Shown here in pieces: positions 8,801 to 58,120 of a stretch of 64,000 bases of DNA. Numbering within the stretch: position 1 is the first letter of the stretch; every line of letters begins with the position of its first letter. The translations under genes and the position numbers were made by a program. The stretch lies in assembly GCA_000092065.1 (NCBI GenBank), contig CP000585.1; one strand, 5' to 3'. Under the pieces are notes generated by a model. That model did no database searches, was not told the origin of the DNA, and saw nothing but the letters and a program-made list of their open reading frames with translations. Origin of the DNA: Ostreococcus lucimarinus (lineage: Eukaryota).

Positions 8801-11800
8801 CGTACGAAACTCGGATCTTTTCCTTTTCGAGCTGTGAGATCTTCAACTTGAGATTAATAATCTCCTCCTGCAACGTGCGCTCTCGCGCCTCTGAGGACGC
8901 TTCAGATTCAGTGGCACCGGCGAGGCGCTTCTGCATGCCGTCGAGCTTATCCTGTAACGAATGAATGGTGATCTGGGCGGTGTTTCTGTGCGCAACGAGT
9001 TCTCGCAATGTCGCCTTGCTGTGGCCGAGAGCAATATTAAGGAAACGTCGATGGCCTTCCTTCACTTGCAAGATGCGGCACGTCGTGCGCCAACGAAGCG
9101 CGGCACGTTCTGATTTCGTGTGCATCATTGCATCATCGTGCGTTCTCTCCAATGAGACACATCTCTTTCGTAAAACATCCAACTCCTGCTCAAGCCGCTG
9201 AGCGACGCGAGCAGCATCTTCTGCGTCTACAGCAGACTGAGCCTTGAAGTCCTCGTACTGCATTCGCAACTCAGACAACTCGCGACGCGTAGTAATGGCG
9301 TCTCCCGACATCGAAGACTTCGACTTCTCCAACTCTGTTTCATGCTCCAGTAATAGCCTTTCGAGCTCCTCAACTCTTGAATCGCGAAGTCCCAAAGTAC
9401 TAGCGTGACGGAACTTGAGCACAGTGAGTTCCTTCTTCTGAATTTGCACGAGATCGGCAATTTGCTGCTCAAAGTCGGCGTGCGCTTGCTCGGCGCGTTT
9501 CGCAGCGTCAGCGGCTTCAGCGCGCATGCGCTCTCTCAATTCTCCAAGTTGCTGCTCGAAGTTCGCCACCATAAGTTGGTATCGAGATTCAGAATCTTCA
9601 GCATCCGATGCTGCTTTCGCCTTGTGCCGAGCAGACAGACTTTCGAGTAAAGTCTTAAAGTTCGCCTGCGCTTCAAGTTCGCGTTCAGCCGCTTCATCCG
9701 CCGCCGCGCGCAGTTGTTGCTCGAAATCCGCTTGCGATTGCTGCGCGCGTGCTTCAGCGCTGTCAGCATCAGCTTTCATGCGCTTGCGTAAATCCTCGAG
9801 CTGCTTCTCGTACTCTTCCTTCATCTGCAGGAAACGAGCGTGTTCAAACGTTGCATCGGACTTTGACTTATTCTTCAATCGCTCCGCCAAGTCATCGAGC
9901 TGATTTTTGAAATCAACCTGCGCTTGGTGCTCGCGCGCAGCACTTTCATCTGCGTCTATACGTGCGCGTGTGCGAAGATCTTCGATTTGCTTGTCATAGT
10001 CGGATTTCATGCTTTGGGCTCGACTCTTCGCCTTTTCCGCGTCAAGCTTGAGTTGATTCTGGAGGTCGTCCAATTGCGCAACAAGGTTCGCCTTTTCGTC
10101 CTGAAGACGCTGCAACTCCGAAGAAGCGGTGGATTTCGTGGAATCCATCGAGGACTGTGCCTCTTGAAGCAAGAGTTCAAGCTCGGCGACGCGTGCGTCG
10201 CGCACGCGTACAGTCTCGTCGAGATCTTCGAGCGCCTTCAGCTTCGCTTTCACTTCAAGCATCTGGTCATTGAGCGAGCGAATCGTCTTGTCGGACGTCG
10301 CCGCCCAGCTGCGTGCCTCGACGAGCTCGGCGGACGTAAACGATTTTACGAGTGCGACATGACGCTGGTGCAACCTTCGTGCGCGCAAGACGCGGCACAT
10401 CCAGGACCAGCGCAACGACGTTCGTTGAGACAAAGCACGCGCTTCCGCGTCTACGAGAGCCTTTTCAGCGGCTGCAAGTTGCGAGCGGAGAGCATCACCG
10501 TCATTTGAAGCCGCGCTGGTCTTCAATGATAACCCTTCCAACTCGGCCCGCAGCGTCTCAATTGTGCTCGCCAACGTCAACTTTTCTTCGGAGGAAACTT
10601 TCAGTAACTCCTTCAGATCGCTAACAGACTTCTGAAGCGCGGTTATATCATCAGCCGCTCGACTGTTTTCACCCTTCGCCGCTTGCAAAGCAATTTTATA
10701 ACCATTGACATCTTTTTCGAGTTCAATGATTCGCGCGACTCGCTTTGCTTCTTCATCCGCGCTCCATTGTGCTTGGAGAGTTTCAATTTGGCTTCGCGAC
10801 TCGGCGAGCTCGCGGCGTAAAGTGATGACGTCCCCGGTAGAAGTAGACTTCAACGCCTCCCAATCGTTCTGTGATTCAAGTAACAGAGCCTCGAGTTCGT
10901 GAATGCGTTTGTCACGAAGTCCCATAGCACTCGCTTGACGGAACTTGACAACCGCAGAATCCTTCTTGTGAACTTCAGCGAGATCAGCCAGTTGTTGCTC
11001 GAAATCCGCTTGCGATTGCTGCGCGCGTGCTTCAGCGCTGTCAGCATCAGCTTTCATGCGCTTGCGTAAATCCTCGAGCTGCTTCTCGTACTCTTCCTTC
11101 ATCTGCAGGAAACGAGCGTGTTCAAACGTTGCATCGGACTTTGACTTATTCTTCAATCGCTCCGCCAAGTCATCGAGCTGATTTTTGAAATCAACCTGCG
11201 CTTGGTGCTCGCGCGCAGCACTTTCATCTGCGTCTATACGTGCGCGTGTGCGAAGATCTTCGATTTGCTTGTCATAGTCGGATTTCATGCTTTGGGCTCG
11301 ACTCTTCGCCTTTTCCGCGTCAAGCTTGAGTTGATTCTGGAGGTCGTCCAATTGCGCAACAAGGTTCGCCTTTTCGTCCTGAAGACGCTGCAACTCCGAA
11401 GAAGCGGTGGATTTCGTGGAATCCATCGAGGACTGTGCCTCTTGAAGCAAGAGTTCAAGCTCGGCGACGCGTGCGTCGCGCACGCGTACAGTCTCGTCGA
11501 GATCTTCGAGCGCCTTCAGCTTCGCTTTCACTTCAAGCATCTGGTCATTGAGCGAGCGAATCGTCTTGTCGGACGTCGCCGCCCAGCTGCGTGCCTCGAC
11601 GAGCTCGGCGGACGTAAACGATTTTACGAGTGCGACATGACGCTGGTGCAACCTTCGTGCGCGCAAGACGCGGCACATCCAGGACCAATGCAAAGCTGCG
11701 CGCTCTGACTTGGCTTGCACGAGCGCCTTTGCGCGCGTCGTGTTGGATTCGTCGAGCTGCTCGCGAAGAATTCTGAGCTCGCCGTGCAAGCGCGAGACTT

Positions 11801-14800
11801 GACCGGAGGATGAGCTCCTCGCTGACTCAAGTGAAGTTTCATATTCACTTATAGCGGTCTCCAGACGCTGGCGTTCGAGCTCAAGTTCATTGATACGGGC
11901 TTCCTTCTCCTCAATTTCATCCTTGTGCGTGTGACGCGCAGCAGTGAGAAGTTTTTCGTGCTCGTCGATGGAAGCTTCGAGGCGCTTGACGAGCGCTTCC
12001 AATTCAGTAATACGGCGCTGATCGACGTCCTTCTTCTTCAACGATTCAAATTTCGCGCGCAATTTTTCAACCTCGGACTTGTTCTTTTCATCCGTCTTTC
12101 GAGCTGACCTATTGGCATTGTCGAGTTTTTTCTCGAGATCACGTATCGTTTCTCGCAAGGCATCCGCTTCTCTTCTGGAAACCTTCACAGCTTCGTCATA
12201 CCGCTTTTTCGAATCCTTGTCCAGCGTGTCGAGATCCCTGTTCAGTTGCTTCGCGAGTTTACCACTCTCGGAGAGTTTCTCCTCCAAATCTTTGACTTTC
12301 ATCCGCGCTTGCGACTCATCCGAAGCCATCTTACCCTTTAACGTAGTGATTTCGTCTTGATGCGCTTCTTCCTTCTTCGCGGCGTCGTCAGCGCGTTGCT
12401 TCAGTTTGGCGTTGGATTCATTCAACGACGTAATCGTGCGCTGAGTGAACTCTACGTAGAGTTTATGATCAGCTCTCATGCCACGAGTGAAGTCCTTTGA
12501 GGTATCGAAGAACCTGTCATGACGATCTCGCTGTTTGACATTCGTAAGGAGTAGTCTCCATCTTGCCGCCGCGAGCTTCGCGGATGATGTCTCCTGGAGC
12601 CCGGCATAAAGTGAACTCGTTTCGTCGAGGCGGTTACGGAGCGTCGCGCACTCCGATCTCAATCGCGACTCTTCTGAGGAGAGTCGCGCTTTTGTTGATT
12701 CCGCGCTCGACTGGAGTTCTTTCATGCCATCCTCCAAGGAGGCGATGAGCTGTTGAAGCTCCTCAATTCGAGCTTCCGACGCCTTCTTTATCCCCAGATT
12801 CTTTGCGACTTCATTTTCGAGTTGCTTCTTAAGATTACGAATTTCGTCGTTCAGAGAGTTGATCGTTCGCTCGCTTTGCTTTTCAATTGAGGCCCGATTC
12901 TTTTCCGCTTCTTCAAACTGCTTCTTCATGACGTTCAAATTGTCATCGCGTCGCTTTCGCAACATCTTGAGCTCTTCGTCAACCTTTGATTTGCTCTTTT
13001 TACTTCCTTCCAGGTCATTCTTTAGCGCCGCAACCGTGTCACCGAGCGAACGAACCGTCTTTGTCGATGCCTCCGCGTGAAGACGGTATTCAGTCCTCAT
13101 CGACTTGACAAAGTCGCGAGCTGTGTGCGTAAATCGGATGCCACGATTTCTTAGACGAAGCTCGTTGGCCAACATCGACCAGCGAATACGGACACGATCC
13201 CTCTTCGAGGCTACGTGAGCTTCCGCTTCCGCTTTCCACGCGTCTCGGATGTCTTTGATTTCCTGCTCGAGGGAGCGAGAATATGCCGTCTTCGTTTCGT
13301 GTAACGAGTTCTGATAACTTTCGACCATACCTTCGAGCACCCCAATGCGCTCGTCGCGCGCCTTCATAGCGCCGTCGGTCTGGAACATTTCGCCTTGCAT
13401 CTGTTCGATTTGCGTCTCAAATTGCTTGGATTGCTTATGCATTTCCTTCAGGTCCGTCTTCGACTTTGCTATAGTACCTTCGAGCGACTTGTTCTTGCTT
13501 ACCATATCAGCGAGCTCCTTCTTTAGCGCTGCTATTGTGTCACCAAGCGAGCGAACTGTTTTTGTCGTGCCCTCGGCGTGAAGCCGATATTCAGTCTTCA
13601 TTGACTTGGCAAAGTCCTTTGAAGTATTCAGGAATCGAAGGTGTCGCTTACGCGTGCGAAGGAGCGAGCACAATGCAGTCCAGCGGCTCGTCGCGAGTTC
13701 ACTCTGCAAGACATCGATACGCTCTCGCAAAGTTGAAATTTCGCCTTCAAGTTCACGGGAATACCGCGTTTTTGTTTCGTGCAGAGATTCCTGATACTCA
13801 CTCACCATCTTTTCAAGCGCTTGAATACGATTATCGCGGGCGGCCAACGCAAGTTCATTATTGAATTTGAATGCGTCACTCTCACGGACTTCGTTCTTCA
13901 ATGCTGCCGCAAACTGTTTCGAATTCTGGAAGAATCGATTATGCCGAGCCTTGAATGTAAGGAAGCGCGCAAAGTGAGACCAACGAAGCGTGGCCAGCTT
14001 CGATCGATGCTCGCTGTCGCCTTCTGCAAGACGCTTTTCTAACTCGACAACACTTTCCGCCAGCGATTCTTTACTTGCCATCATATCGCTGAGGTCCTTT
14101 TCAAGCCTTTTGATCGTCTTGTCACTCTCACGGACTTCGTTCTTCAATGCTGCCGCAAACTGTTTCGAATTCTGGAAGAATCGATTATGCCGAGCCTTGA
14201 ATGTAAGGAAGCGCGCAAAGTGAGACCAACGAAGCGTGGCCAGCTTCGATCGATGCTCGCTGTCGCCTTCTGCAAGACGCTTTTCTAACTCGACAACACT
14301 TTCCGCCAGCGATTCTTTACTTGCCATCATATCGCTGAGGTCCTTTTCAAGCCTTTTGATCGTCTTGTCAAGGGACCGTATCGTTGCCGTCGCCGCGGCA
14401 GCGTGCTGCCTATATTCCTCCTTCATGGATCTGGAGAAGTCCTTTGAAACAGCGTAAAATCTGGCGTGCTTTTGAATGATTCGTGATTTGCTATACATCG
14501 CGGCCCATCGCAATCTTGCCCGTTCACTCCTTCCGTTCGCGATCGCTGAAGCGTGCGCAGCCTGTTCCGAGGTCAGCCTGCTTTGAAGGCGTGCAACTTC
14601 GCCCTCGAGGTCGCGGGAATACCTCGTCTTTGTTTCGTGCAATGAGGATTGATACTCCTGCAACATTCCTTCGAGGGTCACAATGCGCTTGTCTCGAACA
14701 TCCAAGCATTCCGCGTGATCTCCCCTGAGCTTCGCAATAATCGCTCGCAGTTCATCATTGCGCTTCGTGAGTTCGGCGTTTGTTGCTTCGGCTTTGTCTT

Positions 14801-17670
14801 GCAGAGACAAATATCTTCTGTTGATCGATTCTGTACCTTTCACGGCTGAATCCAGTGAACTACGCAACGTGTCGTTCGCTTGAGCCATGTCTCGCTCTCT
14901 GGTCGCCGAGAATTCTGCATTGACGTTGTACTGATGCTTGAGAACGCTCAATTCGTCAGCAAGTGCCAGTAATTCAGACTTAGCACTGTCGCGCGATGCC
15001 GTCATGTTAAGCAAATCATTCTGCAAAAATTCAACCTTTTGCTGCCATTCCTTGACGTTCGCTGCGTGACTTCCGCGAAGTTGTCTATCCCTGGCGTCGC
15101 TCTCACTCGTCTTAAAATCAAGCTGAAGTCTGAGTTCGGCGATTTGAGCCTGAAGCTGCTGCGCGCTCACATCAGCGGCGCGCGTCTCCACTGGCCGCAT
15201 CGATTCGACATGTTGAATCTTGATGTGCTTCTCTTCAAGAATCTGGCAGCGCTGCGTAACCTCACGAATCGATTTGGTAACTGAGACCTTGTGCTGCTCG
15301 GCCATCAAAGTCGACTTGGTGGATTCGGATACCGCAACTTCAAGCTGCTTGCTCTTAATATCGAGCCTGCTCAGATCCACGGATTGCGTGTTGATGATGT
15401 TGTAGGCTTCACGCAGCTTAGCGGCCTCGTTCTGCTTCACCAATGTGAATTCCTTGTCCTTTTCGCGCAGAAGTCGTCTGTACTTGGCGACATCTTCTTC
15501 ATTCTTCGCACGCAACTGCTTACACTGCTTCTCAAGCTGAGCCATTTTCAATTGATCCGCCTCGCTCATCGACGGCACCGCGGCTGTCTCGCCATCGGTT
15601 GCACGTACCGGATATTTTTTGGCAATTTCGTTCTCAAGCGCTTGAACTCGTCGCTGATCCTTCTCACGAAGCTCGCAGACAGTCTTCAATTCAGTCTCTG
15701 TGTTAGTGAGCTTTACGAGTAGAGCGTCGTACGCGTTCTTGAGGCTTGTTCCGCGAATGGACGCGCGCCATTTTGCAACACCGAGCGCGGCGCGACGGTC
15801 GGATAACTCGGCTGTTCTCGACTCGAGTTCGCGTTCAATGCCCGTGATTTGATCGCTAAGACTATCGATCTTCTCGTCTCGGCTACGAAGGTCACGAATG
15901 TACGACGCGTGATCCGTTTTCAATTCGAGGATTTCTGCATCTTTACTCTTTAGTGACGATTCGAGCAACCCCAAAGAGTCCGCAGCGGCTTGCTTCTGAC
16001 TCTCCATCGACGCTTGTGCGGATTTGAATGCCTCAGTGCTGGAGTGTTTCAACTCTTGGAGCGCAGCCTCACCGTCGGAGATCTGCTGTCGCAGTTGCGC
16101 AATGATAGTATTCGACTTGATGACGTGCGCGCTGTGCGCCTGTTGAGCCGCCGAGTGATCAGCGTCGAGTTTCTCCGACGCATCTCGAAGAGTCGCGATT
16201 TCCTTACGTAACTCATCGATCAACGCGGCGTTTCGCTCGTTGTCGCGGCTTTGTAACTCCTCTTTTGACTTGAGCTGCACTTGAGACTCAACTTCATCCT
16301 TCCGTAACTTTTCTATGGTGTCCAAATACTCAAGCATGCGCGTCTTGAGCGCAAAGTTTTGCATTCGCGAAGTTAAGTGCGCGAACGTCAATCCGGTTCT
16401 CCGCTCGATCAACGTTCGTTCAACGTCCGGCACACCCTGATTGGAATTGTAGTGAAGTGTGTGACGGTCGCTTGTCATCAAGTCACGGATTTTCGCACGG
16501 CAAACTTGAAGTTCTTCCTCTATCAAATGCTTGCGGCCTCGGACACTTTCTTCGCGCGATTCCGCTTTGGACAAGAGACGCATCAGTCGCGAAATCTCGG
16601 CGCGTAGATTCGTCCGATCCGTGTCAAACTTAGTGCGATCTCGCTTGCGCGACTTTTCACTCTGCGTGATCTTCGTGCGAATAATGGTCGTCTCGCGTAC
16701 GTGCGACTCAATGCTCTCCTTCAACTTGCGCTCAATCACCGTCGTCGTGCTCTGCGACTGCTCCAACTCCTTCGTTAGAAGCTTGATTTCTGAGGTGAGC
16801 TTCTTCGAAGTGGTTTGAAGTTCTTTCGTCGCGCTGTCGCGCTCGCCCGTCACAGCGTTGATCCGCACTCTTAAAGCATTGAGTTCATCCTTCAGGCGAT
16901 CGACTTCTTCGGACTTGCCATCGAGGCTCTTCTTGAGAGCAGCGTTTTCGATTTCAAGTTTGTGTTTGTCATCTTCCAACTTCGCGAAGGCCTCGTTGGT
17001 TGATATAGAGATGTTAATCGACGACTTGATGTCATACGAGCTCTTTAACTCGATTTCAAGCTTCGAAATGCGCTCCTGCGCGTTCGCGTTGATTTTCTCG
17101 AGCTCGATGATGTCCTTCTTCAACTTGGCGTTCAAGTCGTCGAGTTGATCGCGCTTGCGGCGTTCGTCGAGCGCATTTTGCTTAGTCACTCGATTCGCGG
17201 CCTCAATAGCAGCCTCGAGAGAGCGCTTTGCCTTTACTCGATCCTTCTCCGCGTTTGCAGTCAGTTCTTGAATCTTCTTTTCCATATGTGCCTTGAGGTC
17301 GTTCAACTCTTGCTCGAGCGCGGCCTTCGCCGAACGCTCCTCGCCGAGCCAGCGCGTGTGCTCCTCGAGCGCGGCTTCTGCGGTCGCGCGTCGCTTGTGA
17401 CAGTCGCCACAATCATTGCGCTCTGCACGAAGCGCTTCTTCTGCACGTAACGCTCGAACGCGCCAACTATCATCGACAGTCTTGACTCCGCCGTCTGTGC
17501 CTCGCCATGCTTCGAGCAGGGCAAGCGGTTCAACACGAAAACTCACCCCCATGGGGTTATCGACGCGTTTAATGAGCGGACTCGTGCTCAACTCGGGTTC
17601 ATCGTGCACGTCAGACCCATTCGTTAACCCATCCAACAGTCGAGAGATGGCGCTTGCGGAATCTTCTTTT

Positions 17671-17711
<41 letters not shown>

Positions 17712-17981
17712 TGCCTTGGGCTTGGGCTTCTCTCTCTTCGGCCTTGGCGACGGCGAGCGCCTCTCTCTCGCCTCGCGCGGCCGATTTATGAAATCATCCC
17801 GACTTTGTCTGGTATCGACCCCCAAAAGCATCCCTTTGAAGAAATTCACTGATTTCCCGTTCGCCTCCCCGTTCTTGGCCCCCGTCCTCGTCTTACCGTC
17901 CGTCGGCGGAAGTTCGCACCCTTCGCCGCCGAATCGGCACTCTGCGCGCGCGCGAGCGATCATCGCACCATCGTCAATCAT
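5802..17981 (-). CDS. Giant (about 4,060 aa) coiled-coil protein with an N-terminal poly-Pro tract, at least 11 copies of a Trp-containing ~45-aa module, and an acidic C-terminal tail
   Basis: A single uninterrupted 12.2-kb ORF. The track start at 17987 is a TTG; the first ATG is the third codon, at 17981-17979. Heptad-like E/K/R/L/Q-rich sequence runs throughout. The module (K)SERAxLRWxxxxxxxRxxxRFxxxSKDFxxSMxxEYRLH...KTIRSL recurs. It ends in the acidic EDEPSEDGEQEEEPGYLEETEEILEIVEYDSDGNE. Undetected introns cannot be excluded. Confidence 0.7.
8024..8700. repeat. Intragenic tandem duplication, 2 x ~339 bp, near-identical, inside the giant coiled-coil gene
   Basis: The sequence from gcatttgccgacgcaggcacttgctttctcagctcgtcc through to cttaatcttttcctgagcggca occurs at about 8024-8360 and about 8361-8700 with only a few mismatches. 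The track shows identical 76-aa antisense ORFs at 8125..8355 and 8464..8694. It duplicates a 113-aa protein segment. Confidence 0.9.
9706..11693. repeat. Intragenic segmental duplication: two near-identical ~710-bp copies (9706-10415 and 10984-11693) separated by 568 bp (copy starts 1278 bp apart), inside the giant coiled-coil gene
   Basis: Identical strings such as ttgctcgaaatccgcttgcgattgctgcgcgcgtgcttcagcgctgtcagcatcagctttcatgcg begin at 9721 and 10999. Identical antisense ORFs sit at 9924.. and 11202... The duplication covers an approximately 235-aa protein segment. More diverged paralogous copies of the same unit exist elsewhere, for example about 9390-9480 against 10925-10990. Confidence 0.9.
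13875..14370. repeat. Intragenic tandem duplication, 2 x 246 bp, near-identical, inside the giant coiled-coil gene
   Basis: The sequence gtcactctcacggacttcgttcttcaatgctgccgcaaactg... occurs at 13875 and 14121. The track shows identical antisense ORFs at 13990.. and 14236... It duplicates an 82-aa segment. Confidence 0.9.
17673..17712. repeat. (GGC)13 microsatellite encoding the poly-Pro tract (P14) of the giant protein
   Basis: The run ggcggcggcggc... is visible. On the minus strand the CCG frame gives PPPPPPPPPPPPPP. Confidence 0.9.
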
Positions 17982-18808
17982 CGTCAATCGCGGTCATCGC
18001 GCGCGTTCCGATTCGCGCGCGTTCGCCTCGCCTTCGCTCGCCTCGCCTCGCCTCGCCCGCCGCGTTCAACCGCACGTACTCGCCAACCATTCAAATTTAT
18101 CGCTCCGCATCGACGCCAACGTCTCATCCGACCCCTTCGTCGTCCTCGCCCAATCCTCGCGTCCGATCGGCGTCGTCGGTCGCGCGCTCATCGCGCCTCG
18201 ATCGCCTCCGCGCCGGTCTCACGCGCGCGAACGCGACGCGATTCGAACGTTCGTTGATTCGCAATCGCAATCGCGATTCGTTCCGTGGGACGACCGTCCG
18301 CGCGGTCTCGTTCGCGTCGTTCGCGTTCGCTCGCGGTGCGCGCGCGCGTGCGTTCGCTCGCGCTCGCGCTCGCGCTCGCGCTCGCGTCGACGGCGCCGAA
18401 CACTGCCGCGCGCGCGCCTTCGGAATTGAATTCCCGAATCGAGGCCGACGCGTCATCCTCGCGCTCGACGAGTCACGACCCGTCGCGAGTGGATTTCTCA
18501 TAATACACACACGGACCGTCGCCGCCGCGGCGCCGCGCGAAGGGTCGGTCGCGCGAGTGCGCGGCGCGGACCTCGCGCGCGCGTCGAGCGACGCGTTCGC
18601 GCGCGCGCGGATCGACGCGCGCGAGCGCCCGAAGCGTCCGCGCGGACGCGCGACGGCGTCGACGCGAAAAAGCGGCGACGCGCGGTGGAATCGCGACGAA
18701 AGGACGCCGAACGGACGGACGCGGAGAATCGAACGAGCGACGGCGTGACGCGCGAGCGGACGCGCGCGCGCGCGAGTGGACGCGCGTCGGACGCGAGCGT
18801 CGAAGACG
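17982..18808. promoter_or_regulatory. Divergent (bidirectional) promoter / 5'UTR region between the giant coiled-coil gene (-) and the ACT-domain kinase (+); contains simple repeats
   Basis: The two ATGs face away from each other. The region contains (GCCTCG)n at about 18033-18058, (CGCTCG)n at about 18355-18400, and a cgcaatcgcaatcgcgattcg near-palindrome at about 18258. The inference is positional. Confidence 0.4.
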
Positions 18809-26659: not shown

Positions 26660-28384
26660 ATGAATCAACGTTCCTCGCCGGTGCGCGCGACGAACGCGAC
26701 GAACGCGACGCGTCGAGCGATGAATTCGCGCGCAATTAAACGTGTGACGACGACGACTGACGACGACGGAAACGACGCGGAAACGACAGACACGACGCCC
26801 GTGTACGCGACGTTCGCGGAAGACGTGACCGGGTTCTTCGGAAAGTGGAACTTGCAGCCGAACGCGCCGCGGTCGAAACGACTCGGGTCGCCCGCGCGCG
26901 ACGGCGGCCGCGGCGGCTCGGGACGCGCGGTCGGGACGTCTTCGCCGCCGCCGCGCGAACCGAAGTGGACGGACGAAACGGATGAGGACGATGAATATTT
27001 ATTTAGTGATCACGACGCGGTGACGCCGGCGGCGAAACGGCGAGTGGTGTCGTTCGAGAGGGTGAGGAGCGTGCCGGGGGCGCGCGCGGCGCGCGGCGCG
27101 GGGAACGCGGCCAAGTTGGCGGCGAAAAGTTTTAAGCGGTTCACGAGTCGGGCGGCGCGAGGCATGGTCGGGGTTCTGAGCGATCGCTCGAGCGTGTTCG
27201 ACTTTAAGATGTTTAAGCTCTTCACGTTCGTGTTGAACGTGACGCTGAGCACGTTTGAGATCCCAAGGCAGTTGATTTTGATTCCTCTCATCGTGGGCAG
27301 TCGATTGGCAATGGTGCCGGAGTGGCTGCTGAGCGCGTTCGAGTATGATTCGTGGGAGATGCCGAGAGCGAAAAAGAAACGCCCCAAGTTAAGCACCGAT
27401 TTTAAGTTCCCGACGCTTCGTTGGAATGCTTTGAAGACGTGGGAGAACGCGATGCAAGCGGGGAGAGAGAGTTTACGCCGCGTCGAGTCGCAAGTGCGCA
27501 CCGAGCCGGGTGAGACGCCGGAGATGAGAGCGGTGATTGATAAACTTATCGAGGAAGGTTTGGCGTACGACAAGGCGTGCGATAGCCAGAAGTCGCAGGC
27601 TGCGTTTGAGCGCGCGCTCGAGCTAAGACCGAAAGATCCGGTCGTGATGATTTCTTTGAGTAAGGAACTCAGCGACCGCGTCTTTGATCACGAAATTTTC
27701 CACAACAAGCCGCAGGCGAGACAGCTTGCGTCGAGAGCCGCTGATTTAGCATCGGAGGCGATCGAACTCGCACCTGAGAACGCACAGTGCTACATCGCGC
27801 TGGCCGTGGCGAACGCGCGGTTGAGCATGTTCAGCGACGCGCGGCAAAAGGTGGAACTCACGCACTCGATTAAAGGAAATTTAATGAAGGCGTTGGAAAT
27901 CGAGCCCGAGAGCGATTACGCCTATCACGTGCTGGCCAGATTCGAGCACACCATGGCGCACATCGGTGGATTGATGCGGTATTTAATCAAGACAATATAC
28001 GGCGCCATCGAACCGGCGACGATCGAGCGGGCTGAGGAGTACTTCAGGCGAGCGATTGAAATCAATCCAAAGCGCCTGATTCACGGCGTTGAGCTCGCCA
28101 AGCTTCTGTACGAAACGAAGCGATATGACGAGTGCAAAGAATTGTTGGTGCCATCGATCGAGCTAGAAATCGAAGACATCAACAGCGTGCGGACGAAGAA
28201 GGACGGCGAAGCGTTACTTAAGAAGTTGACCAACAAACTCAACAGGACGCCGAGTCGTCTCTCGATGTCTCGCACACCGTCCAAGCATCGTCTTCCGCGT
28301 ACCTCGTCCTCGTCGCACACTCCGATGTCGCCGTTGACACCGATCTCACGCAATAACTCCAAGGGCAGCGGGCTCTTTGATTAG
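26660..28384 (+). CDS. TPR-like repeat protein with an N-terminal hydrophobic anchor (architecture reminiscent of RMDN/FAM82-type proteins)
   Basis: ATG verified. The C-terminal half has TPR-like helical repeats (AAFERALELRPKDP..., AYHVLARFEHTMAHIGGLMRYL..., EEYFRRAIEINPKRL...). A hydrophobic segment LFTFVLNVTLSTFEIPRQLILIPLIVG is present. The family assignment is tentative. Confidence 0.55.
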   Translation: MNQRSSPVRATNATNATRRAMNSRAIKRVTTTTDDDGNDAETTDTTPVYATFAEDVTGFFGKWNLQPNAPRSKRLGSPARDGGRGGSGRAVGTSSPPPREPKWTDETDEDDEYLFSDHDAVTPAAKRRVVSFERVRSVPGARAARGAGNAAKLAAKSFKRFTSRAARGMVGVLSDRSSVFDFKMFKLFTFVLNVTLSTFEIPRQLILIPLIVGSRLAMVPEWLLSAFEYDSWEMPRAKKKRPKLSTDFKFPTLRWNALKTWENAMQAGRESLRRVESQVRTEPGETPEMRAVIDKLIEEGLAYDKACDSQKSQAAFERALELRPKDPVVMISLSKELSDRVFDHEIFHNKPQARQLASRAADLASEAIELAPENAQCYIALAVANARLSMFSDARQKVELTHSIKGNLMKALEIEPESDYAYHVLARFEHTMAHIGGLMRYLIKTIYGAIEPATIERAEEYFRRAIEINPKRLIHGVELAKLLYETKRYDECKELLVPSIELEIEDINSVRTKKDGEALLKKLTNKLNRTPSRLSMSRTPSKHRLPRTSSSSHTPMSPLTPISRNNSKGSGLFD

Positions 28385-31589: not shown

Positions 31590-31670
31590 ATGGCGGACGT
31601 CGACGAGAACGCGTACGCCGCGCTGGGACTGGCGTTCGAGGACGCGCCGAGCGAGGCGACGATTAAAAAG
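31590..31670 (+). CDS. DNAJC17: DnaJ homolog subfamily C member 17-like (J-domain + RRM protein), exon 1
   Basis: ATG at 31590. It encodes MADVDENAYAALGLAFEDAPSEATIKK, the start of a J domain, and is followed immediately by GTGCGT. Confidence 0.8.
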
Positions 31671-31813
31671 GTGCGTCGAGCGCGCGACGCGCGCGACGCG
31701 CGACGCGCGGGGCGACGCGACGCGCGCGACTCGACGATTTCGCATTCGCATTCGCATTCGAAACGACGACTGACGACGACGACGACGACGACGACGCGCG
31801 CGAAAACTCGCAG
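31671..31813 (+). other. DNAJC17: Spliceosomal intron (143 nt, GT..AG, phase 0) splitting the J domain of DNAJC17
   Basis: Donor is AAG|GTGCGT at 31671. Acceptor is ...aaaactcgCAG| ending at 31813. Splicing joins ...ATIKK to AFRKLALKCHPDK, restoring the invariant HPD motif. The intron contains (CATTCG)3 and (GACGAC)8 tracts. Confidence 0.8.
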
Positions 31814-32677
31814 GCGTTCCGAAAACTCGCGCTGAAATGCCACCCCGATAAGCGGCCGGCGTCGGAGCGCGAGCGGGCGGAGAAGGAGTTTGACGCGCTG
31901 CGACGCGCGAGCGACGCGCTGCTCGACGTCGACGCGCGACGCGCGTTGGATGATTTCCTGCGCGCGAAAGCGGCGCGAGCGCGCGCGCACGCGGCGCACG
32001 GAGCGAAGAGAAAACGAGATTTAGAGGATCTGGAGGCGCGGGAGCGGAAGGCGGCGAGCGCGGGGGAGGTGGGGGCGGAGCGCGCGGCGCGAGAGCGGTT
32101 GCGAGGCGAGTTGGAGCGTTTGCGGCGTCGACGCGAGGAAGCGACGCGGGGGGGGAAGGCGCGAGATGGCGATGGCGTGGGGACGGCGGCGACGACGTCG
32201 ACGGTGCCGGAGCACTTGTATCGAGCGCTCAAGGTGGTGTGGCGACGCGACGGCGACGCGGACGACGACGCGTACTCGGCCAAGGAGCTGCGGGAGATTT
32301 TTGAAACCTTTGGTCGCATCGAGGACGTCGTGATTCGCGAGGGGAAGAAGAAGAAAGGCAGCGCGCTCGTCGTGTTTGCAGACGGCGACGCGTGCGCCAC
32401 GGCGTCTGGGGCGACGTGTGGGCGGTCGAGTAATCCGTTGGTCGTCGCGCGCGCCGCGATTCCTCCGAAAGTCGACGCGGGGGAACCGGCGAAGCGACGG
32501 GACGACGCGGCGTCGGGAGGCGTTTCACCGGCGCCGGCGAGCGAAACGACCGCGGCTCGAGCGCCGAGCGTCGCGAATCTAGACTTTGAGAGCGTGGTGC
32601 TGGAGCGATTGAAACGCGCGCAAGAGCGCGCTCGGCTCGTCGCAGAGGCGGAAGCGGAAGGCGACGACGAATCGTGA
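31814..32677 (+). CDS. DNAJC17: DNAJC17-like, exon 2 (rest of the J domain, Arg/Glu-rich coiled coil, C-terminal RRM)
   Basis: It encodes AFRKLALKCHPDKRPASERERAEKEFDALRRASDALLD...LKVVWRRDG...ELREIFETFGRIEDVVIREGKKKKGSALVVFADGDACATA, which is RRM-like. It is in frame with the track ORF at 31946..32677. Confidence 0.8.
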   Translation, partial: AFRKLALKCHPDKRPASERERAEKEFDALRRASDALLDVDARRALDDFLRAKAARARAHAAHGAKRKRDLEDLEARERKAASAGEVGAERAARERLRGELERLRRRREEATRGGKARDGDGVGTAATTSTVPEHLYRALKVVWRRDGDADDDAYSAKELREIFETFGRIEDVVIREGKKKKGSALVVFADGDACATASGATCGRSSNPLVVARAAIPPKVDAGEPAKRRDDAASGGVSPAPASETTAARAPSVANLDFESVVLERLKRAQERARLVAEAEAEGDDES

Positions 32678-32851
32678 TTTTTTATAGCGTGGTAGACACA
32701 TCGTGTCGCGTGGCGCGGCGCACAATCTAGTAATCATTGCAATACCGAACATTTCGTGATCGCATCGCGCTCTGAAAGAGTGCTAGAAGAAGTCAAGAGC
32801 GACTGCGTCCTCGAAGGCGAGGTCGCGTCTCTTTGCTAAGAATACCCGTCC

Positions 32852-33271
32852 TCACTTGGCGTACTTCGCCGTCCACTCTCGCGCCGTTTGCAGCGCTCCG
32901 TGTTCGTCCGTTTTCCAGTGCTCCGCCACGTTCTCTCGCAAAGGGTCATCTGGGTTCGGCGCGCTCATCAACGCCTGCACGCTGAGTAAAATCGTACGAA
33001 TCTGCAGCGCCGGAGACCACTTATCCTTCAACACGTCCAAACAGATGCGCCCAATCTTATCCGTGTTCGGGTGATAAATTTTCGTCCTGAAGAACACCTC
33101 CGGCGGCGCCATGGGATAATCCGCGGGTAAGAACAGCTCCAACTTGAACTTCCCGCCCTCGTACGCCGTTCCCCGCGGTCCCTCCACGACGACGAAAAAG
33201 TGTCGCAGGTTCGTCTCGCTCACCTCCACCGCGATCCCCGGAATCGGTTCCTGCTGCAATCGCTGCGCCTC
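32852..33271 (-). CDS. UBE2N: Ubiquitin-conjugating enzyme E2 N (Ubc13), exon 2
   Basis: It encodes [32 protein letters not shown]...[60 protein letters not shown]...EWTAKYAK. This is near-identical to human UBE2N (…[60 protein letters not shown]…). Confidence 0.9.
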
Positions 33272-33496
33272 CTGCGTCGTCATCGCGCGTCGCGCGCGTC
33301 GTTTCGTCATTCTCGCGTCGTCGCGTCTCGTCGCCTTCCCGTCTCCCGTCTCGCGCGCGCCGTTTTCCCGCGCGTCGCCTTCGCCGCGGTCCGCCGTCGT
33401 CGCGCCCGATTTCACCGCGTCGCGCGTCGTCGTCTCGTTCGTCGTCGTCGTCGTCGTCGCCTTCGCGTCGTCGCCTTCGTCGCGCGTCCGCCGCAC
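33272..33496 (-). other. UBE2N: Spliceosomal intron (225 nt, GT..AG, phase 0) in UBE2N, in frame and stop-free, and therefore masked inside a long ORF
   Basis: Minus-strand donor is AAG|GTGCGG at 33496 and acceptor is acgacgCAG|GAG ending at 33272. Splicing gives [26 protein letters not shown], which aligns with human MAGLPRRIIKETQRLLAEPVPGI. The intron has a (GACGAC)n tract that encodes poly-T if left unspliced. Confidence 0.85.
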
Positions 33497-33535
33497 CTTG
33501 AGGATCCGTCGCGGGAGCGACGACGCGTCCGCCAT
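33497..33535 (-). CDS. UBE2N: UBE2N (Ubc13), exon 1 (13 codons, [13 protein letters not shown])
   Basis: ATG verified (cat at 33533-33535). The 53 in-frame codons the track places upstream ([11 protein letters not shown]...) are not coding. Confidence 0.85.
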
Positions 33536-33669
33536 CCTCGTCGACCGGCGTCGCCGCGTTCGCGCGCGCGCGTCGCTCGCGTCGCGCGCGTCGCGCGCGT
33601 CGCCGCCCTCGCGCGCTCTCGCGCGTCTCGCGCGCGCGCGCTCGTCGTGCGTCGACGCCGCGCGTCGCG

Positions 33670-34683
33670 ATGTTCGGTCGCGTCGTCGCGGCACTCGCGC
33701 GCGCGATGGCGCCGACGCGCGTCGCCGACGCGCGTCGACGCGGGCCGCACGCGCGCGGGGTCGCGCTCTTCGTCGCGCTCGCGCTGCAGTACGCGTCGCA
33801 GCCGTTCCTGCGCGCGCGCTACGCGGCGAACGCGCGCGCGTCGGCGCTCGTGCTGAGCGTCGAGATCGCCAAGGCGACGCTGTGCGCGTGCGCGCTGCTG
33901 CGACGACGCGAGACGCGAGGGGCGCTGCGACGGGCGTCCGCGCGGTCGCTGCTCGCGTCGGGCGCGCCGGCGGCGGTGTACGCGGCGCAGAACGTGCTGC
34001 TGCAGAGGGGCGCGCGCGCGCTGGACGGCGTGACGTTCAACTGCCTGAACCAGACGAAGCTCGCGAGCGCGGCGGCGTTTCTGTGGCTGGGAGGGGCGCG
34101 GCAGAGCCGAGCGCAGTGCTTGGCGCTGGTGGGGACGCTCGCGGCGGCGGTGAATCTGTTCGGGGGGGAGACGGCGGCGAGCGGCGGCGGCGGCGCGGCG
34201 AGCGCGGCGGCGCGCGCGGCGGGCGCGACGAGCGTGTTGGTGGCGTCTGCGCTGTCGGGATTGTCGGGAGCGATGTGTCAGTTCGCGCTGCAGGGGAGCG
34301 AGAAGCTTCCGGCGATGATGACGCTGGAGATGGCGATCACGGGGGTGCCGATGGTGTTGCTCGCGGAGCGCGTCGCCGCCGGCGACGAGTTTCGCCTGAG
34401 CGCGGTGTACGAGTCGTGGACGGCTTGGGCGCTCGTTCCCGTGCTGTCGAGCGCGATCGGTGGGATACTGGTGGGGGAGATCACGAAGCGATTAGGTTCG
34501 ATCGCGAAGGGGTTCGCCGTGACGTGCGGTTTGGTGCTGACGGGGGTGTTTCAGAGCGTCTTCGCGGGCGCGGCGCCGCCTCGCGCGCACGTCGTGAGTT
34601 TGATCGTCATCGTCATCAGCACTTGGGTGCACACCGCGTTTCCGCCAGTCGAGAAGCGTAAGAAGAAGCGCAAGACGGGTTGA
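33670..34683 (+). CDS. Nucleotide-sugar transporter (SLC35A/UDP-galactose-CMP-sialic acid transporter family)
   Basis: A multi-pass membrane protein. The motif region is [40 protein letters not shown], and it has a C-terminal basic tail KRKKKRKTG. My hand-indexing of the start is within 1 nt of the track value. Confidence 0.75.
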
Positions 34684-38704: not shown

Positions 38705-40282
38705 TCACGTGAGCACGAGGGCGATCTCGCTAGGTTCTAAATCTTCCAATATCCGCCAGTTGTAGAGGTAATAGTGCAAATTCCCGTCGCCGATGCCGAA
38801 ATTGAGCGCGCTCAGGAAGGATTCGTTTTCCATCAAATCGAGCGCGTTGAAGACGTCGAATGCGTTGTTTCGCGCCAAAATGAGGGCGTCTTCCATGAGC
38901 TTCACGAGCGGCATGGACGTCGCGACGTTGTAATACGAGTACGCCGCCTTCAGAGTTTTGTGCTTGGTTTTGCTGTGAATGATTTGCGACGGTAAGTTGT
39001 AAAAGCTGACGAAGTCGGTGATCTTGTTCGTCTTCTCGTCCTCGACGACGTATGAAAACACGACGTCCTCGCGCGGCAACAACCAGTGCCGAACTTCGGC
39101 CTCATTCATTATGGGCGCCACGGCGAATCTAGTCAAATATTTGCTCAACAACGCCGTCACGCGTGGAACGTCGGCCTCGGTCATGTGACGCAACCCTTCC
39201 GATTTTGGCTTCGCGGCAAGCTTGAACATCTGCACCGCGCGTGACATCGAGGCGTCGCGACCCAGGCGCGTGAATCCGATGTCGACGAGCTTTTTAATAT
39301 CCAAACTCCGATGCCAATAACGCGCTTTCGATATCGGCTTCGGCAACAGCACTCCCGCGGTGTACGTCGCTTGCCACACATCTTTCGCGTTGACCCGTCG
39401 CGTAATCTCCTTGATGAGCGTCGGCGCGATGCGCTTCGAGCGCAACTTTTTATGAATGCACAAGAAATTGATCTCCGCCAAGTCGATTTCTTTCCCCTTC
39501 ACCCTGAGTTTCGCCGGCACGCCCGTGATGAACGCCACGAGCGTCTGCGTCACCTTCAACCGCACTCCAACGTGCCAATCACCGTGATACTCCGGCGGTC
39601 GCAGCGCCCACTTTAAAAACTCTTGCGAGTATTGAAATCGAAACATCGCGTCGTCGTCCTCCACGTAGTTGTTCGTCAACAGCTCGTACACCTCCTCCTG
39701 CGTCCTCGAGTCCGTCATATCGCACGAGCACCACTCGTACCCCGGCGGCAGCGCGCCTCCGCTCTCGCTCGTCTCACTCGCGAGTTTCGGCGGGTCGATC
39801 GGTCCTTCCCGCAGCTCCGCGCCGCGCGACGTGTCCTCGCCGAATTGTCGCACGGGTTGCGTCTCCCAGAATTCGTGCGACGGCATTCGCGACGTCCGCT
39901 TCCCTTCGCGTTCGGCGAGGTGATGCTTCACGAGCGCGTCGACCACGCTCGACACCGTCGGCGCGTCGCCGTCGCGCGCGCGATCGACATCGCCTTCGAC
40001 ATCTCGTCCGCGCACCGCGTCGTTTCGCGCGTCGCGCGCGTCCGACGCGTCGGCGCCGACGACGCGCGCGTTCGCGTCGGCGCTCGCGGCGCGCGGCGCC
40101 GCGTCGGCGTCGGCGTCGGCGCGCATGTCGCGTCCAGCGCGTCGGAGTGCGGGCCGACGCCGTTCATCGGCAGAGCGCGACGCGTCGGCGAGCGCGCGAG
40201 ACACCGAGTCGGCGCGCGAGCGCGCGCGAGCGATCGACGCGTCGACGCTCAGACGCATAGACGCCCGGACGCGTCGAGACAT
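38705..40282 (-). CDS. NMT: Glycylpeptide N-tetradecanoyltransferase (N-myristoyltransferase)
   Basis: ATG verified at 40282. Conserved blocks are FWETQPV, EINFLCIHKKLRSKRIAPTLIKEITRRVN and YYLYNW. The N-terminal ~140 aa are Arg/Ala/Asp-rich, and the true start may be a downstream Met. Confidence 0.85.
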   Translation of the reverse strand: MSRRVRASMRLSVDASIARARSRADSVSRALADASRSADERRRPALRRAGRDMRADADADAAPRAASADANARVVGADASDARDARNDAVRGRDVEGDVDRARDGDAPTVSSVVDALVKHHLAEREGKRTSRMPSHEFWETQPVRQFGEDTSRGAELREGPIDPPKLASETSESGGALPPGYEWCSCDMTDSRTQEEVYELLTNNYVEDDDAMFRFQYSQEFLKWALRPPEYHGDWHVGVRLKVTQTLVAFITGVPAKLRVKGKEIDLAEINFLCIHKKLRSKRIAPTLIKEITRRVNAKDVWQATYTAGVLLPKPISKARYWHRSLDIKKLVDIGFTRLGRDASMSRAVQMFKLAAKPKSEGLRHMTEADVPRVTALLSKYLTRFAVAPIMNEAEVRHWLLPREDVVFSYVVEDEKTNKITDFVSFYNLPSQIIHSKTKHKTLKAAYSYYNVATSMPLVKLMEDALILARNNAFDVFNALDLMENESFLSALNFGIGDGNLHYYLYNWRILEDLEPSEIALVLT

Positions 40283-40404
40283 CGAGGCGCGCGCGCGCCG
40301 CGCGCGCGAACGCGTCGAACGCGCGCGCGGAAGACGCCAGGTGGTGACGAGAACGGCTTTGACGACGCGCGCGAGACGCGAGACGCGCGAGACGGAAGCG
40401 CGCG
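40283..40404. promoter_or_regulatory. 122-bp divergent promoter region between NMT (-) and the TMEM184 gene (+)
   Basis: The two verified ATGs are at 40282 (-) and 40405 (+). Confidence 0.4.
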
Positions 40405-41547
40405 ATGAAGTGGTACCTAGGGTATACCACCGCGCACCACGTCACGGGGTTCTTAGCGTGGACGAGCGCGATCGTCGCCGTCGCGCTCGTCGCCATGCAC
40501 GTGAAGCACTACACCATGCCGCGGGTGCAGCGACACATAAATCGAGTGATTCTCGTCGTGCCCGTGTTCTCGTTGCTGAGCTGGATCTCGCTCGTGATCG
40601 AAAATAATAAGGCGGAGTTCTACATCGAGGTCGTGCGAGATTGCTACGAGAGCTGGGTGGTGTACAACTTTTTGAATCTTTGTCTGGCGTACGTCGGCGG
40701 ACCGGGCGCCATCGTGAACGCCATGGCTGGGAAGGAGATCAAAGTCGGTTCTTGGTTGCGCGGGACGTGCATCTTTGATCGTGATTTAGTGGTAGATGGG
40801 AACTACATTCGGCGGTGCAAACAAGGATGCTTGCAGTTCGTGTTTATCAAGCCGATTTTGTCGGTTATAGAAATCGTGCTGCAAGCCAAAGGGAAGCTCG
40901 GCGACGGACAGATCAACTTTTTGAAGGCGTACGTGTACATTCTCTTCGTGTATAACATTTCATACACACTCGCTTTGTACGCGCTGTGGATGTTTTACTT
41001 GGGCGCACACGACCCACTGGCGAAGTACAATCCGTTACTCAAGTTTATCATCGTCAAGAGCGTGATCTTTTTGAGCTTTTGGCAAAGCTTCTTCACCGCC
41101 ATGGCGGTGCGCACGGGAAGTTTGGATAGCCCCGAAGAAGGTCGCGCGGTGCAGGACGTACTTATTTGCTGCGAGATGTTCGTCGTATCGTTGATGATGT
41201 GGTTCGCGTTCCCATACACCGATTTCGTCGACCCAACGGGCGCCAAGCGTGGCTTCGTCTCCAACGTCGTCAACTTTGTCTCTGTGCGCGACGTCTTTGA
41301 CGATACGGTGCATCAGTTTGGGGCGACATATCAAGACTACACGCTTCACGGTGACGGAGAGACACCGGATAGGACGGTGAAGATGCGTACATTCGTTCCT
41401 ATGGGTCGTTCGAGCGCACCCGAGCACGACACCGCGAGCCTGTCGGCGAACGCGTCGGTGTGGGACGACCTGGAAGCGGCGGCAAACGCGCCCCCGCTTC
41501 GAAGCGACGCGCCTGAACACGAGTTGGCGACGATCGGCGAAGAATAA
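40405..41547 (+). CDS. TMEM184 / OST-alpha family (DUF300) multi-pass membrane protein
   Basis: ATG verified. The seven-TM core reads ...YESWVVYNFLNLCLAYVGGPGAIVNAM...FLKAYVYILFVYNISYTLALYALWMFY...LLKFIIVKSVIFLSFWQSFF, typical of DUF300. Confidence 0.8.
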   Translation: MKWYLGYTTAHHVTGFLAWTSAIVAVALVAMHVKHYTMPRVQRHINRVILVVPVFSLLSWISLVIENNKAEFYIEVVRDCYESWVVYNFLNLCLAYVGGPGAIVNAMAGKEIKVGSWLRGTCIFDRDLVVDGNYIRRCKQGCLQFVFIKPILSVIEIVLQAKGKLGDGQINFLKAYVYILFVYNISYTLALYALWMFYLGAHDPLAKYNPLLKFIIVKSVIFLSFWQSFFTAMAVRTGSLDSPEEGRAVQDVLICCEMFVVSLMMWFAFPYTDFVDPTGAKRGFVSNVVNFVSVRDVFDDTVHQFGATYQDYTLHGDGETPDRTVKMRTFVPMGRSSAPEHDTASLSANASVWDDLEAAANAPPLRSDAPEHELATIGEE

Positions 41548-47337: not shown

Positions 47338-47752
47338 CTACGTTCCGTCGCGTCGCGTCCATCGTCAGTCGCGCGTTCCGATCGTCGATCGATTTTTCAT
47401 TCACCGCGCGCGCGTCGTCTCGTCCCCGCGCGTCGTTCGCGCGCGCGTCCGACGCCGTCCGCGTCGCGCCCGCGAGAGGTTTTCGCCGTCGCGTCGATCG
47501 CGTCGCGCGCGCGCCGCGCGACGTCGATCGCGCCCGCGGCGCGCGCGCGATCGATGTCGAGCGACGCGTTCGCGCCGTCGCGCGCGTCGCGCGTCGCGCA
47601 CCTTCTCTTTCTTCGCCGCCATCGTCGCGCGTCGTGTGGCGTCGACCGCGGACCTTTCGCGACGGCGGGGTCGACCGACCGCGGTCCGCGGGGCGATGGC
47701 GCGGTTTTAGGGCGGGCCGTACTGTTTGCGCATACGATTGGAATGTGATGCT

Positions 47753-48884: not shown

Positions 48885-49002
48885 ATGGCGGACACGAACC
48901 GAATCATGAAAGAGCTGCGCGAGATCGCGAGCGACGTCGCGTCGCAGGTCAAGGTGACGCAGCACGGGGACAGTTTGGTGCACATGAAGGGCACCATCGC
49001 GG
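48885..49002 (+). CDS. UBE2K: Ubiquitin-conjugating enzyme E2 K (UBC core + C-terminal UBA), exon 1
   Basis: ATG verified at 48885. It encodes MADTNRIMKELREIASDVASQVKVTQHGDSLVHMKGTIAG, matching human UBE2K (MANIAVQRIKREFKEV...IKVDLVDENFTELRGEIAGP). Confidence 0.9.
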
Positions 49003-49070
49003 GTGCGTGCGCGCGATCGCGACGCGGCGAAACGCGTCGCGAGAGACTGACGGGCGACGGCCGCGCGCAG
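49003..49070 (+). other. UBE2K: Spliceosomal intron (68 nt, GT..AG, phase 1) in UBE2K
   Basis: Donor is G|GTGCGT at 49003 and acceptor is gcgCAG| ending at 49070. G plus GA reconstitutes a Gly codon, giving ...TIAG-PSETVYEGGTF..., which aligns with human ...EIAGPPDTPYEGGRY.... The length is not a multiple of 3, which explains why the two exons fall in different track ORFs (48885..49157 and 48365..49531). Confidence 0.9.
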
Positions 49071-49531
49071 GACCGAGCGAGACGGTGTACGAGGGCGGGA
49101 CGTTTCACATCGACATACAGATCGGGGCGTCGTATCCGTTCGAACCGCCGAAGATGAAGTTTCTCACCAAGGTGTGGCATCCAAACGTGTCGAGCCAGAC
49201 GGGGGCGATTTGCCTGGACGTGCTGAAGGATCAGTGGTCGCCGGCGTTGACGCTGAAGACGGCGCTGTTGTCGTGTCAGGCGCTGCTGGCGGCGCCGGAA
49301 CCGGACGATCCGCAGGACGCGCAGGTGGCGCAGATGTACACGGAACGACGAGGGGAGTTCGACGAGACGGCGAGGACGTGGACGAAGAAGTACGCCACGG
49401 AGGATCAGAAGGATCCGGTCGTCGGGGAGTTGATGGAGATGGGGTTCAGTGAGGGTGCGGTATTGAAAGCGCTGACGAAGTGCGGTGGGAATAAGGATCG
49501 CGCGGTCGAGGAGCTGTTGGGGGGGGCTTGA
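49071..49531 (+). CDS. UBE2K: UBE2K, exon 2 (UBC fold remainder + UBA domain)
   Basis: It encodes [69 protein letters not shown]...ELMEMGFSEGAVLKALTKCGGNKDRAVEELLGG. This closely matches human UBE2K ([69 protein letters not shown]...LCAMGFDRNAVIVALSS). Confidence 0.9.
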
Positions 49532-57650: not shown

Positions 57651-58120
57651 TCGCCCGTTCATCGTGTAACGCACAATCCTTCGCGCGTCGTCCCGCGTCG
57701 GCTCGTCGCCAGCCGCGCCGCGCGCGTCGCCGCACATCGGCGCACTCGATCCGCGCAGACATGGGCGGCCGCCGCGCGCACCACGAAAACGGCGATCACC
57801 CCATGTGTTCGTTCGCGGCGTGCGTGCCGCCCAAGGAGTGGAGCGCCGAGCGCGTGAGGTGCGTCGCGACGCGCGCGATCGTCGCGAGATAACGACCTCG
57901 AGATATCGCTTGAGTTTCGTTCGAAACGCGCTCGCGCGACGCGCGCGCGCGACGCGGGCGGGCGACGAGGGATGCGACCGAAGCGAACGCGCGAACGCGA
58001 CTGACGAACGACGCGCGCGCGACGCACGAACGCAGGACGTGCGTGGATGAGTGCTTTGAAAAATTGCCGAAGACGTACTACAAGGTGGAACGACGCGAGT
58101 GCGGCGGATTGGCGCGGTCG

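Follow-up and report, generated by a model that had tools for sequence, protein, structure and literature searches.

A stop-free GT-AG intron within a long open reading frame of the Ubc13 gene of Ostreococcus lucimarinus

The stretch of 64,000 nucleotides (nt) of Ostreococcus lucimarinus analysed here (NCBI GenBank assembly GCA_000092065.1, contig CP000585.1), hereafter called the window, carries on its minus strand the gene of a ubiquitin-conjugating enzyme (E2) of the Ubc13/UBE2N type, interrupted by a short segment that can be read through. In the list of open reading frames (ORFs) the gene is contained in an ORF of 280 amino acids (aa) at 32852..33694 (-), which starts at a GTG and opens with an Arg-rich leader of 53 residues. 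Coding exon 1 (33497..33535 (-), 39 nt) consists of the ATG at 33535-33533 and 12 further codons, and ends at a codon boundary, in phase 0. The segment that follows, read here as a spliceosomal GT-AG intron of 225 nt in phase 0 (33272..33496 (-), GTGCGG...ACGCAG), begins with the 5' splice site GTGCGG (33491..33496 (-)), whose first five bases are those of the consensus GTGCGTG, and ends with the 3' splice site CAG (33272..33274 (-)), directly before GAG, the codon of Glu14. The probable branch site is AATGAC at 33306..33311 (-); its branch A, at 33307, would precede the 3' end of the intron by 35 nt. Coding exon 2 (32852..33271 (-), 420 nt, read as the reverse complement) comprises 139 codons, EAQRLQQEP...AKYAK, and the stop codon TGA at 32854-32852. 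A 3' untranslated region of at least 136 nt (32716..32851 (-)) is given by the public contig L034, in which nt 1543-1678 are collinear with 32851-32716.

Joining of the exons, with 33496-33272 removed, restores the reading frame across AAG/GAG in phase 0 and gives a product of 152 aa, not the 149 aa expected in the original prediction. The 280-aa ORF, its 53-residue Arg-rich leader and the 225-nt stop-free insert GTGCGG...CAG had also been described there, and were all recovered at the same coordinates of the minus strand. In frame 0 the insert is free of stop codons and in frame with both exons; an (ACG)n microsatellite lies within it, at about 33459-33439. The segment 33496-33272 is almost certainly a conventional U2-type GT-AG spliceosomal intron between Lys13 and Glu14 of Ubc13. 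This is carried by the exon/intron boundaries, by the non-coding evolution of the segment in relatives, by the contig without the intron and by the identity of the spliced product with a deposited protein; the relatives, L034 and the deposited XP_001418007.1 bear out the hidden intron first proposed. On this reading the intron is removed from the pre-mRNA, and the resulting E2 enzyme of 152 aa is collinear with other Ubc13 proteins.

The spliced 152-aa product is identical, residue for residue, to the protein deposited for O. lucimarinus CCE9901 (ABO96300.1 / XP_001418007.1 / UniRef100_A4RXJ5), and no difference exists at the protein level. XP_001418007.1 shares with the window Ser6 and Glu43, at which the environmental population has Gln6 and Asp43, so that the window belongs to CCE9901 or to a strain nearly identical with it. 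As the identity of the deposited protein indicates, the intron is already removed in the reference annotation, which is correct, and its recognition is not new. A correct Ubc13 model has been available in GenBank and UniProt since the publication of the O. lucimarinus genome, and the result has little biological weight. The deposited label of A4RXJ5 is 'predicted protein', with a UBC core domain and no Ubc13/UBE2N name.

In the comparison with human UBE2N, the spliced product showed 68% identity and 0 gaps over 146 aa. The best PDB matches were UBE2N/Ubc13 chains, with E 2e-68 to 6e-57, followed by the UBE2D/Ubc4 class at 2e-39, and the Pfam family UQ_con was found with 1.5e-45 over profile positions 1-139 of 140. 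Numbered along the spliced product, the residues H80-P81-N82 (HPN) and the catalytic C90 are invariant columns of the orthologue alignment. All 32 diverse orthologues of the alignment have K13 and E14, the residues on either side of the junction, and in none of these proteins was anything inserted between the two. On sequence criteria, the spliced product is a clear match to UBE2N at the level of orthologues. The UBE2N core of the original prediction was thus found to be orthologue-level and gap-free, and the collinearity with the human protein that it expected was confirmed, but with only 68% identity it cannot be called near-perfect. With human UBE2N and yeast Ubc13, the K63-specific E2, the protein has in common the UBC fold, HPN, the catalytic Cys and this gap-free identity.

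A difference from human UBE2N and yeast Ubc13 is located at residues 69-76 (33050-33070 (-)), which read PPEVFFRT in all Ubc13 proteins of the Ostreococcus clade, PPECFFRT in the protein P0219, and have Phe for human R70. At the equivalent positions 31 diverse orthologues have P[PA]KVRF[LM]T with little or no variation. The equivalents of human E55 and F57 are kept as E58 and F60, that of R70 is F73, and K68 and M72 are replaced by E and R, respectively. Human E55, F57 and R70 are residues of the pocket that binds Uev/Mms2 (Mms2/Uev1). The substitutions suggest that the interface with the Uev1/Mms2 partner may have co-evolved in the Ostreococcus clade.

AlphaFold2 models were used only to place helix alpha-1. 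In the model of the spliced protein (mean pLDDT, predicted local distance difference test score, of 65) this helix corresponds to residues 8-20, and the Lys13/Glu14 junction is therefore predicted to lie in the middle of helix alpha-1. According to these models, a translated insert would cut alpha-1 and part its invariant half, LPRRI(I/L)K, from the remaining fold. In the model of the unspliced 227-aa protein, residues 1-66 had a pLDDT below 50 and the remaining insert was a low-confidence helix.

These data bear on the explanation that the insertion is real at the protein level, the 227-aa (or 280-aa) ORF being translated with a low-complexity loop rich in Thr, Arg and Asp. The ORF is indeed continuous, metagenome pipelines name the 227-aa product UBE2N, and Pfam UQ_con is still found in it. 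Against this, the match to UQ_con in the unspliced product loses the first positions of the profile and begins only at position 3, the deposited reference protein does not have the segment, no orthologue has an insert at this site, the equivalent segments of the relatives are untranslatable, and L034 is without exactly this segment, with GT-AG boundaries. Such an insertion is regarded as extremely improbable. In the Pfam analysis of the 227-aa product only UQ_con was detected, and no recognisable domain was found within the inserted 75 aa. An intein or an insertion domain was also considered and rejected, as the insert is of low complexity, is predicted to be mostly disordered and yields only UQ_con in Pfam.

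Four related lineages were available as syntenic metagenome loci, with Gpi16, the nucleotide-sugar transporter, Ubc13, DnaJ-RRM and a GTPase as shared neighbours. In L020, exon 1 (MTDASQLPRRIIK) is followed by an intron of 175 nt with three in-frame stops, in L031 (MADASQLPRRIIK) by one of 163 nt with one in-frame stop, and in L001 (MDVSQLPRRIIK) by one of 178 nt with four, these lengths not being multiples of three. The intron of L017 (exon 1 MDATGLPRRILK), of 183 nt, is a multiple of three and has one in-frame stop. The exon 1 pattern M-x3-4-LPRRI[IL]K, followed by GT, is kept in L020, L031, L001 and L017, and in all four the intron ends with CAG before GA[AG]GC.CA[AG]CG (E-A-Q-R), at the same phase-0 site between Lys and Glu (K/E). 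The amino-acid identity of exon 2 is about 90-97% among the relatives (97% for L020), and of the introns only the 3' third of the one in L020 can be aligned. In terms of sequence evolution, an insert of fixed position and variable length and frame is the signature of a non-coding intron. A homologous insertion at the protein level, which the original prediction had proposed to look for in close relatives, was absent: in-frame stops occur in all four introns, and three of the four lengths are not multiples of three.

The same loci bear on a reading without any intron, in which translation would start at an internal ATG at 33310 or 33283 (MTTQEAQRL...) and the upstream match to exon 1 would be due to chance. 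Some metagenome gene calls do use these starts (P0233, 152 aa; P0232, 143 aa). Their product nevertheless lacks LPRRI(I/L)K, the invariant half of alpha-1, the mini-exon and the GT are kept in four of the four relatives, the introns of which have no equivalent in-frame ATG, and the exons are joined in L034. An internal start is for these reasons hardly credible.

An exact-sequence look-up showed that a spliced environmental variant, P0234, is called on contig L034 (Logan SRR5799337_44380, 1678 nt). In the blastn comparison, nt 1016-1123 of this contig correspond to window positions 33603-33496 and nt 1121-1678 to 33273-32716, exactly 225 nt being absent. The check proposed in the original prediction, RNA-derived sequence across 33272-33496, thus found a counterpart in a public contig without exactly 33496-33272. 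About 68 nt of the leader region (33603-33536) are present in L034 as a 5' leader. Over 558 nt the contig is 100% identical to the intron-bearing genomic alleles L009, L013, L016 and L021 of the environmental population. L034 appears to be derived from RNA, and an origin other than spliced mRNA would hardly account for it. A literature search on SRR5799337 found no paper.

Contig L034 also carries, in nt 1-1015, an unrelated ORF of 223 aa that is read from the opposite strand, this part having no match in the window or in the 6-kb upstream environmental flank. The join lies within GGATGG/GACGCG low complexity.

The position of the intron is shared beyond the Ostreococcus lineages. In Chlamydomonas reinhardtii (CM008962.1) an intron of 86 nt stands right after ...LPRRIIK and before ETQKL, and in Physcomitrium patens (CM009324.2) GTAAGT stands right after ...PRRIIK and CAG before GAAACTCAG. 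Since the K/E position is common to Chlamydomonas and Physcomitrium, it is ancestral at least to green plants. The first intron of these Ubc13/UBC35-36-type genes has the identical phase-0 K/E position, but differs from that of Ostreococcus in sequence, in length (86 nt in Chlamydomonas) and in the flavour of its splice signals. The Ubc13 genes of both organisms also have more downstream introns (e.g. after ...SEP(G)), which are lost in Ostreococcus. The Ostreococcus gene keeps only the 5'-most ancestral intron, in an intron-poor and compact genome, possibly for reasons related to expression. The locus is a clean, small example of two trends already known, namely that intron-poor genomes retain the 5'-most ancestral intron and that T-depleted, GC-rich non-coding DNA can be read without a stop.

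This distribution also concerns the possibility of a recently gained intron of the introner type or derived from a transposon, belonging to a repeated family like those of Micromonas. Sequence rich in GACGCG/(ACG)n is common to the introns and spacers of the window, and blastn gave matches of 67-92% identity over 20-200 nt. In the comparison of the intron with the 64-kb window these were, however, low-complexity matches only, with no full-length or high-identity copy, and the position shared by the four related lineages, Chlamydomonas and Physcomitrium points to an ancient intron. A recent gain of this kind has next to no probability.

The splice signals were compared with those of the introns of O. 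lucimarinus located outside chromosome 2 and confirmed by expressed sequence tags, in which the 5' consensus is GTGCGTG and ACTGAC is present in 87% and GACTGACG in 66% (Irimia & Roy 2008, PMC2483917). The Ubc13 intron agrees with this class in the GTGCG donor, in a candidate branch motif resembling ACTGAC about 30-45 nt from the 3' site, and in its GC-rich sequence within an otherwise intron-poor, compact gene. It differs in the base at +6, which is G and not T, and in AATGAC in place of ACTGAC. In the sister lineages L020 and L031 the 5' splice site is GTGCGC; the branch motif is ACTGAC in L020, at the same distance of 35 nt, and CTGAC at 29-44 nt in the other relatives. The motif AATGAC (33311-33306) is the likely branch site, judged by its resemblance and spacing. 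The T depletion of the Ubc13 intron is extreme: T makes up 2% of it, but 7-10% of the other two introns supported in the window. The intron is thus of the usual kind and stands out by degree only, its one deviation being the branch motif.

Several points weigh against the assignment as a spliced intron. AATGAC is one base off the ACTGAC consensus of about 87% of the confirmed introns of the O. lucimarinus class, and the intron has no polypyrimidine tract, a feature equally absent from the neighbouring introns. Both AlphaFold2 models reach only a moderate confidence, with a mean pLDDT of 56 and 65. As to L034, its origin from a transcript of SRR5799337 is only presumed, its nt 1-1015 are without match to the Ubc13 locus, and the contig is probably a chimeric assembly.

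The base composition of the intron is strongly biased: on the sense strand only five of its 225 nt are T (2%), the remainder being G (43%), C (29%) and A (26%), with a GC content of 72%. Sequences without an in-frame stop made up 53% of dinucleotide-preserving and 66% of mononucleotide-preserving shuffles, and the joint chance of a length that is a multiple of three and no stop was about 0.2 (shuffle fraction x 1/3). Because the T-depleted composition gives such a chance, the openness of the intron is unremarkable. Both properties stem from a T-depleted, GC-rich composition of the (GACGCG)/(ACG)n type, as found in the nearby introns and the promoter spacer, and they are no sign of a coding function.

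In a rival reading the intron, although usually spliced, would be retained facultatively, in the manner of an exitron, with some transcripts keeping it, escaping nonsense-mediated decay (NMD) and giving a 227-aa isoform. Retained introns that are stop-free and a multiple of three in length do escape NMD (PMC2911113), and the Ubc13 intron has both properties; its branch motif is AATGAC where a sister lineage has ACTGAC, and every sampled environmental allele of the species has an open version of 225 or 222 nt. Openness is, however, expected at about 0.2 from composition alone, the introns of L020 (the closest lineage; 175 nt, three stops), L031, L001 and L017 are closed and no frame is conserved, the insert would split the invariant helix alpha-1, and the 227-aa protein is disordered over residues 1-66 in the model. 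The environmental loci, moreover, had been selected through exact identity of the protein; the sample therefore leans to open frames and cannot show out-of-frame alleles. For the same reason population polymorphism was rejected as a test of coding. Facultative retention is considered very unlikely, and little credence is given to its more specific form, in which a regulated fraction of the transcripts would retain the intron through a branch site weakened in this species, yielding the 227-aa variant with escape from NMD.

Exitrons (PMC4484396) and stop-free introns of 3n length resemble the Ubc13 segment in length and in the absence of stops, and a retained copy would be translated without NMD. 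Exitrons are distinguished by coding-like conservation and a position inside coding exons, whereas the Ubc13 segment evolves as non-coding sequence and is closed in four of four relatives. Classification as an exitron or coding intron was thus rejected: the length and the open frame agree with it, but coding-type conservation is not seen and the relatives are closed or frame-shifted. If retention did occur, a disordered, charged segment of 75 aa would split helix alpha-1, in the face that binds E1 and E3, and an inactive or dominant-negative isoform would be possible. T depletion would then also make many Ostreococcus introns invisible to NMD, opposite to the pattern of Paramecium and Yarrowia, in which stop-free introns of 3n length are depleted (PMC2911113).

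The only practical consequence of the spliced intron concerns sequence catalogues. The original prediction had warned that an ORF finder would silently translate the intron, and this was found to happen: in metagenomes of IMG and ENA the unspliced 227-aa ORF has been called on more than 170 contigs, labelled 'ubiquitin-conjugating enzyme E2 N'. A protein search with the spliced product gave no separate full-length spliced match from close relatives; it matched P0002, the unspliced ORF of 227 aa that represents its cluster, and truncated relatives, first P0003 and later P0227, P0230 and P0219. When gene callers of the prokaryotic type are run on marine metagenomes, they read through the intron and leave 75 residues of translated intron in the deposited proteins, and such chimeric read-through products come to represent whole clusters of large protein catalogues.

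Other gene calls start inside the intron and have 143, 152, 214 or 249 aa. The loci L009-L016 and L021-L030 and the proteins P0002, P0218, P0220, P0222, P0225, P0229 and P0231-P0233 represent unspliced or intron-start calls. The unspliced form is the representative of the 90%-identity cluster, masking the correct 152-aa reference protein. In P0225 one ACG unit fewer is present, corresponding to an intron allele of 222 nt.

Upstream of exon 1, the Arg-rich leader of the 280-aa ORF (33536..33694 (-)) is non-coding and consists of a divergent spacer and the antisense start of the neighbouring gene. This neighbour is a divergently oriented nucleotide-sugar transporter gene, with its ATG at 33670 (+) and Pfam PF04142. 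The 134-bp spacer between both genes (33536-33669) has 1.5% T on the minus strand, and reads open on that strand because of this scarcity. The 53-aa leader is T-poor spacer followed by the antisense of the first transporter codons, and is no coding sequence of Ubc13.

Intron, spacer and first transporter codons form an island of about 500 nt (33235-33737) nearly free of T on the minus strand, of which exon 1 is the only T-bearing part. Smaller islands depleted in A or T are located at 926-1111 and 18613-18776. Spurious ORFs overlap Ubc13 and the spacer at 33144-34661 (+) (505 aa), 33200-33856 (+) (218 aa) and 33412-33750 (-) (112 aa). Since such ORFs arise in GC-rich, T- or A-poor sequence, ORF length alone is no evidence of coding here.

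Two further introns of the window are supported by domain homology, and both show the signals published for O. lucimarinus introns outside chromosome 2. The DnaJ-RRM (DNAJC17-like) gene at 31590-32677 (+) has an intron of 143 nt at 31671-31813 (GTGCGT...CGACTGACGA...CGCAG); its exon 1 (31590-31670) encodes MADVDENAYAALGLAFEDAPSEATIKK, and removal of the intron joins helix I of the J-domain to AFRKLALKCHPDK. The ORF list contains only a 243-aa downstream part of this gene, with a TTG start, and the metagenome calls in L017 and L031 are also without exon 1. A second E2 gene, at 48885-49531 (+), codes for a UBE2K/Ubc1-like protein of 192 aa with Pfam UQ_con (3e-45) and a C-terminal UBA domain (7e-8), and has an intron of 68 nt in phase 1 at 49003-49070 (+) (GTGCGTG...AGACTGACGG...GCGCAG). 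The introns of the DnaJ-RRM and E2-UBA genes have 10% and 7% T, respectively, and no in-frame stops. A scarcity of T on the sense strand is common to all supported introns, and none of them has a polypyrimidine tract between the branch and the 3' splice site.

Scanned against Rfam with gathering thresholds, the entire window was without a match, and hence without a known intronic RNA gene. The regular-expression scan for introns (GT[AG][ACT]G ... [ACT]TGAC ... [CT]AG joining open frames) gave 114 candidates, mostly spurious, of which the two just described were kept by homology. Five candidate 5'-proximal introns, recognised by motif only, are located at 17942-18075 (-) (134 nt, GTGCGG...TTGAC...GCGCAG), 26681-26789 (+), 40147-40420 (+), 47338-47601 (-) and 57820-58035 (+). 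They have GTGCG donors, branch motifs of the (A/T)CTGAC type and 7-11% T, with a short ATG exon before and a long ORF after. The first of them is the 5' candidate intron of the region 5802-17987 (-), which is a single ORF of 4061 codons with a lower GC content (50-55%) and a strong AT skew.

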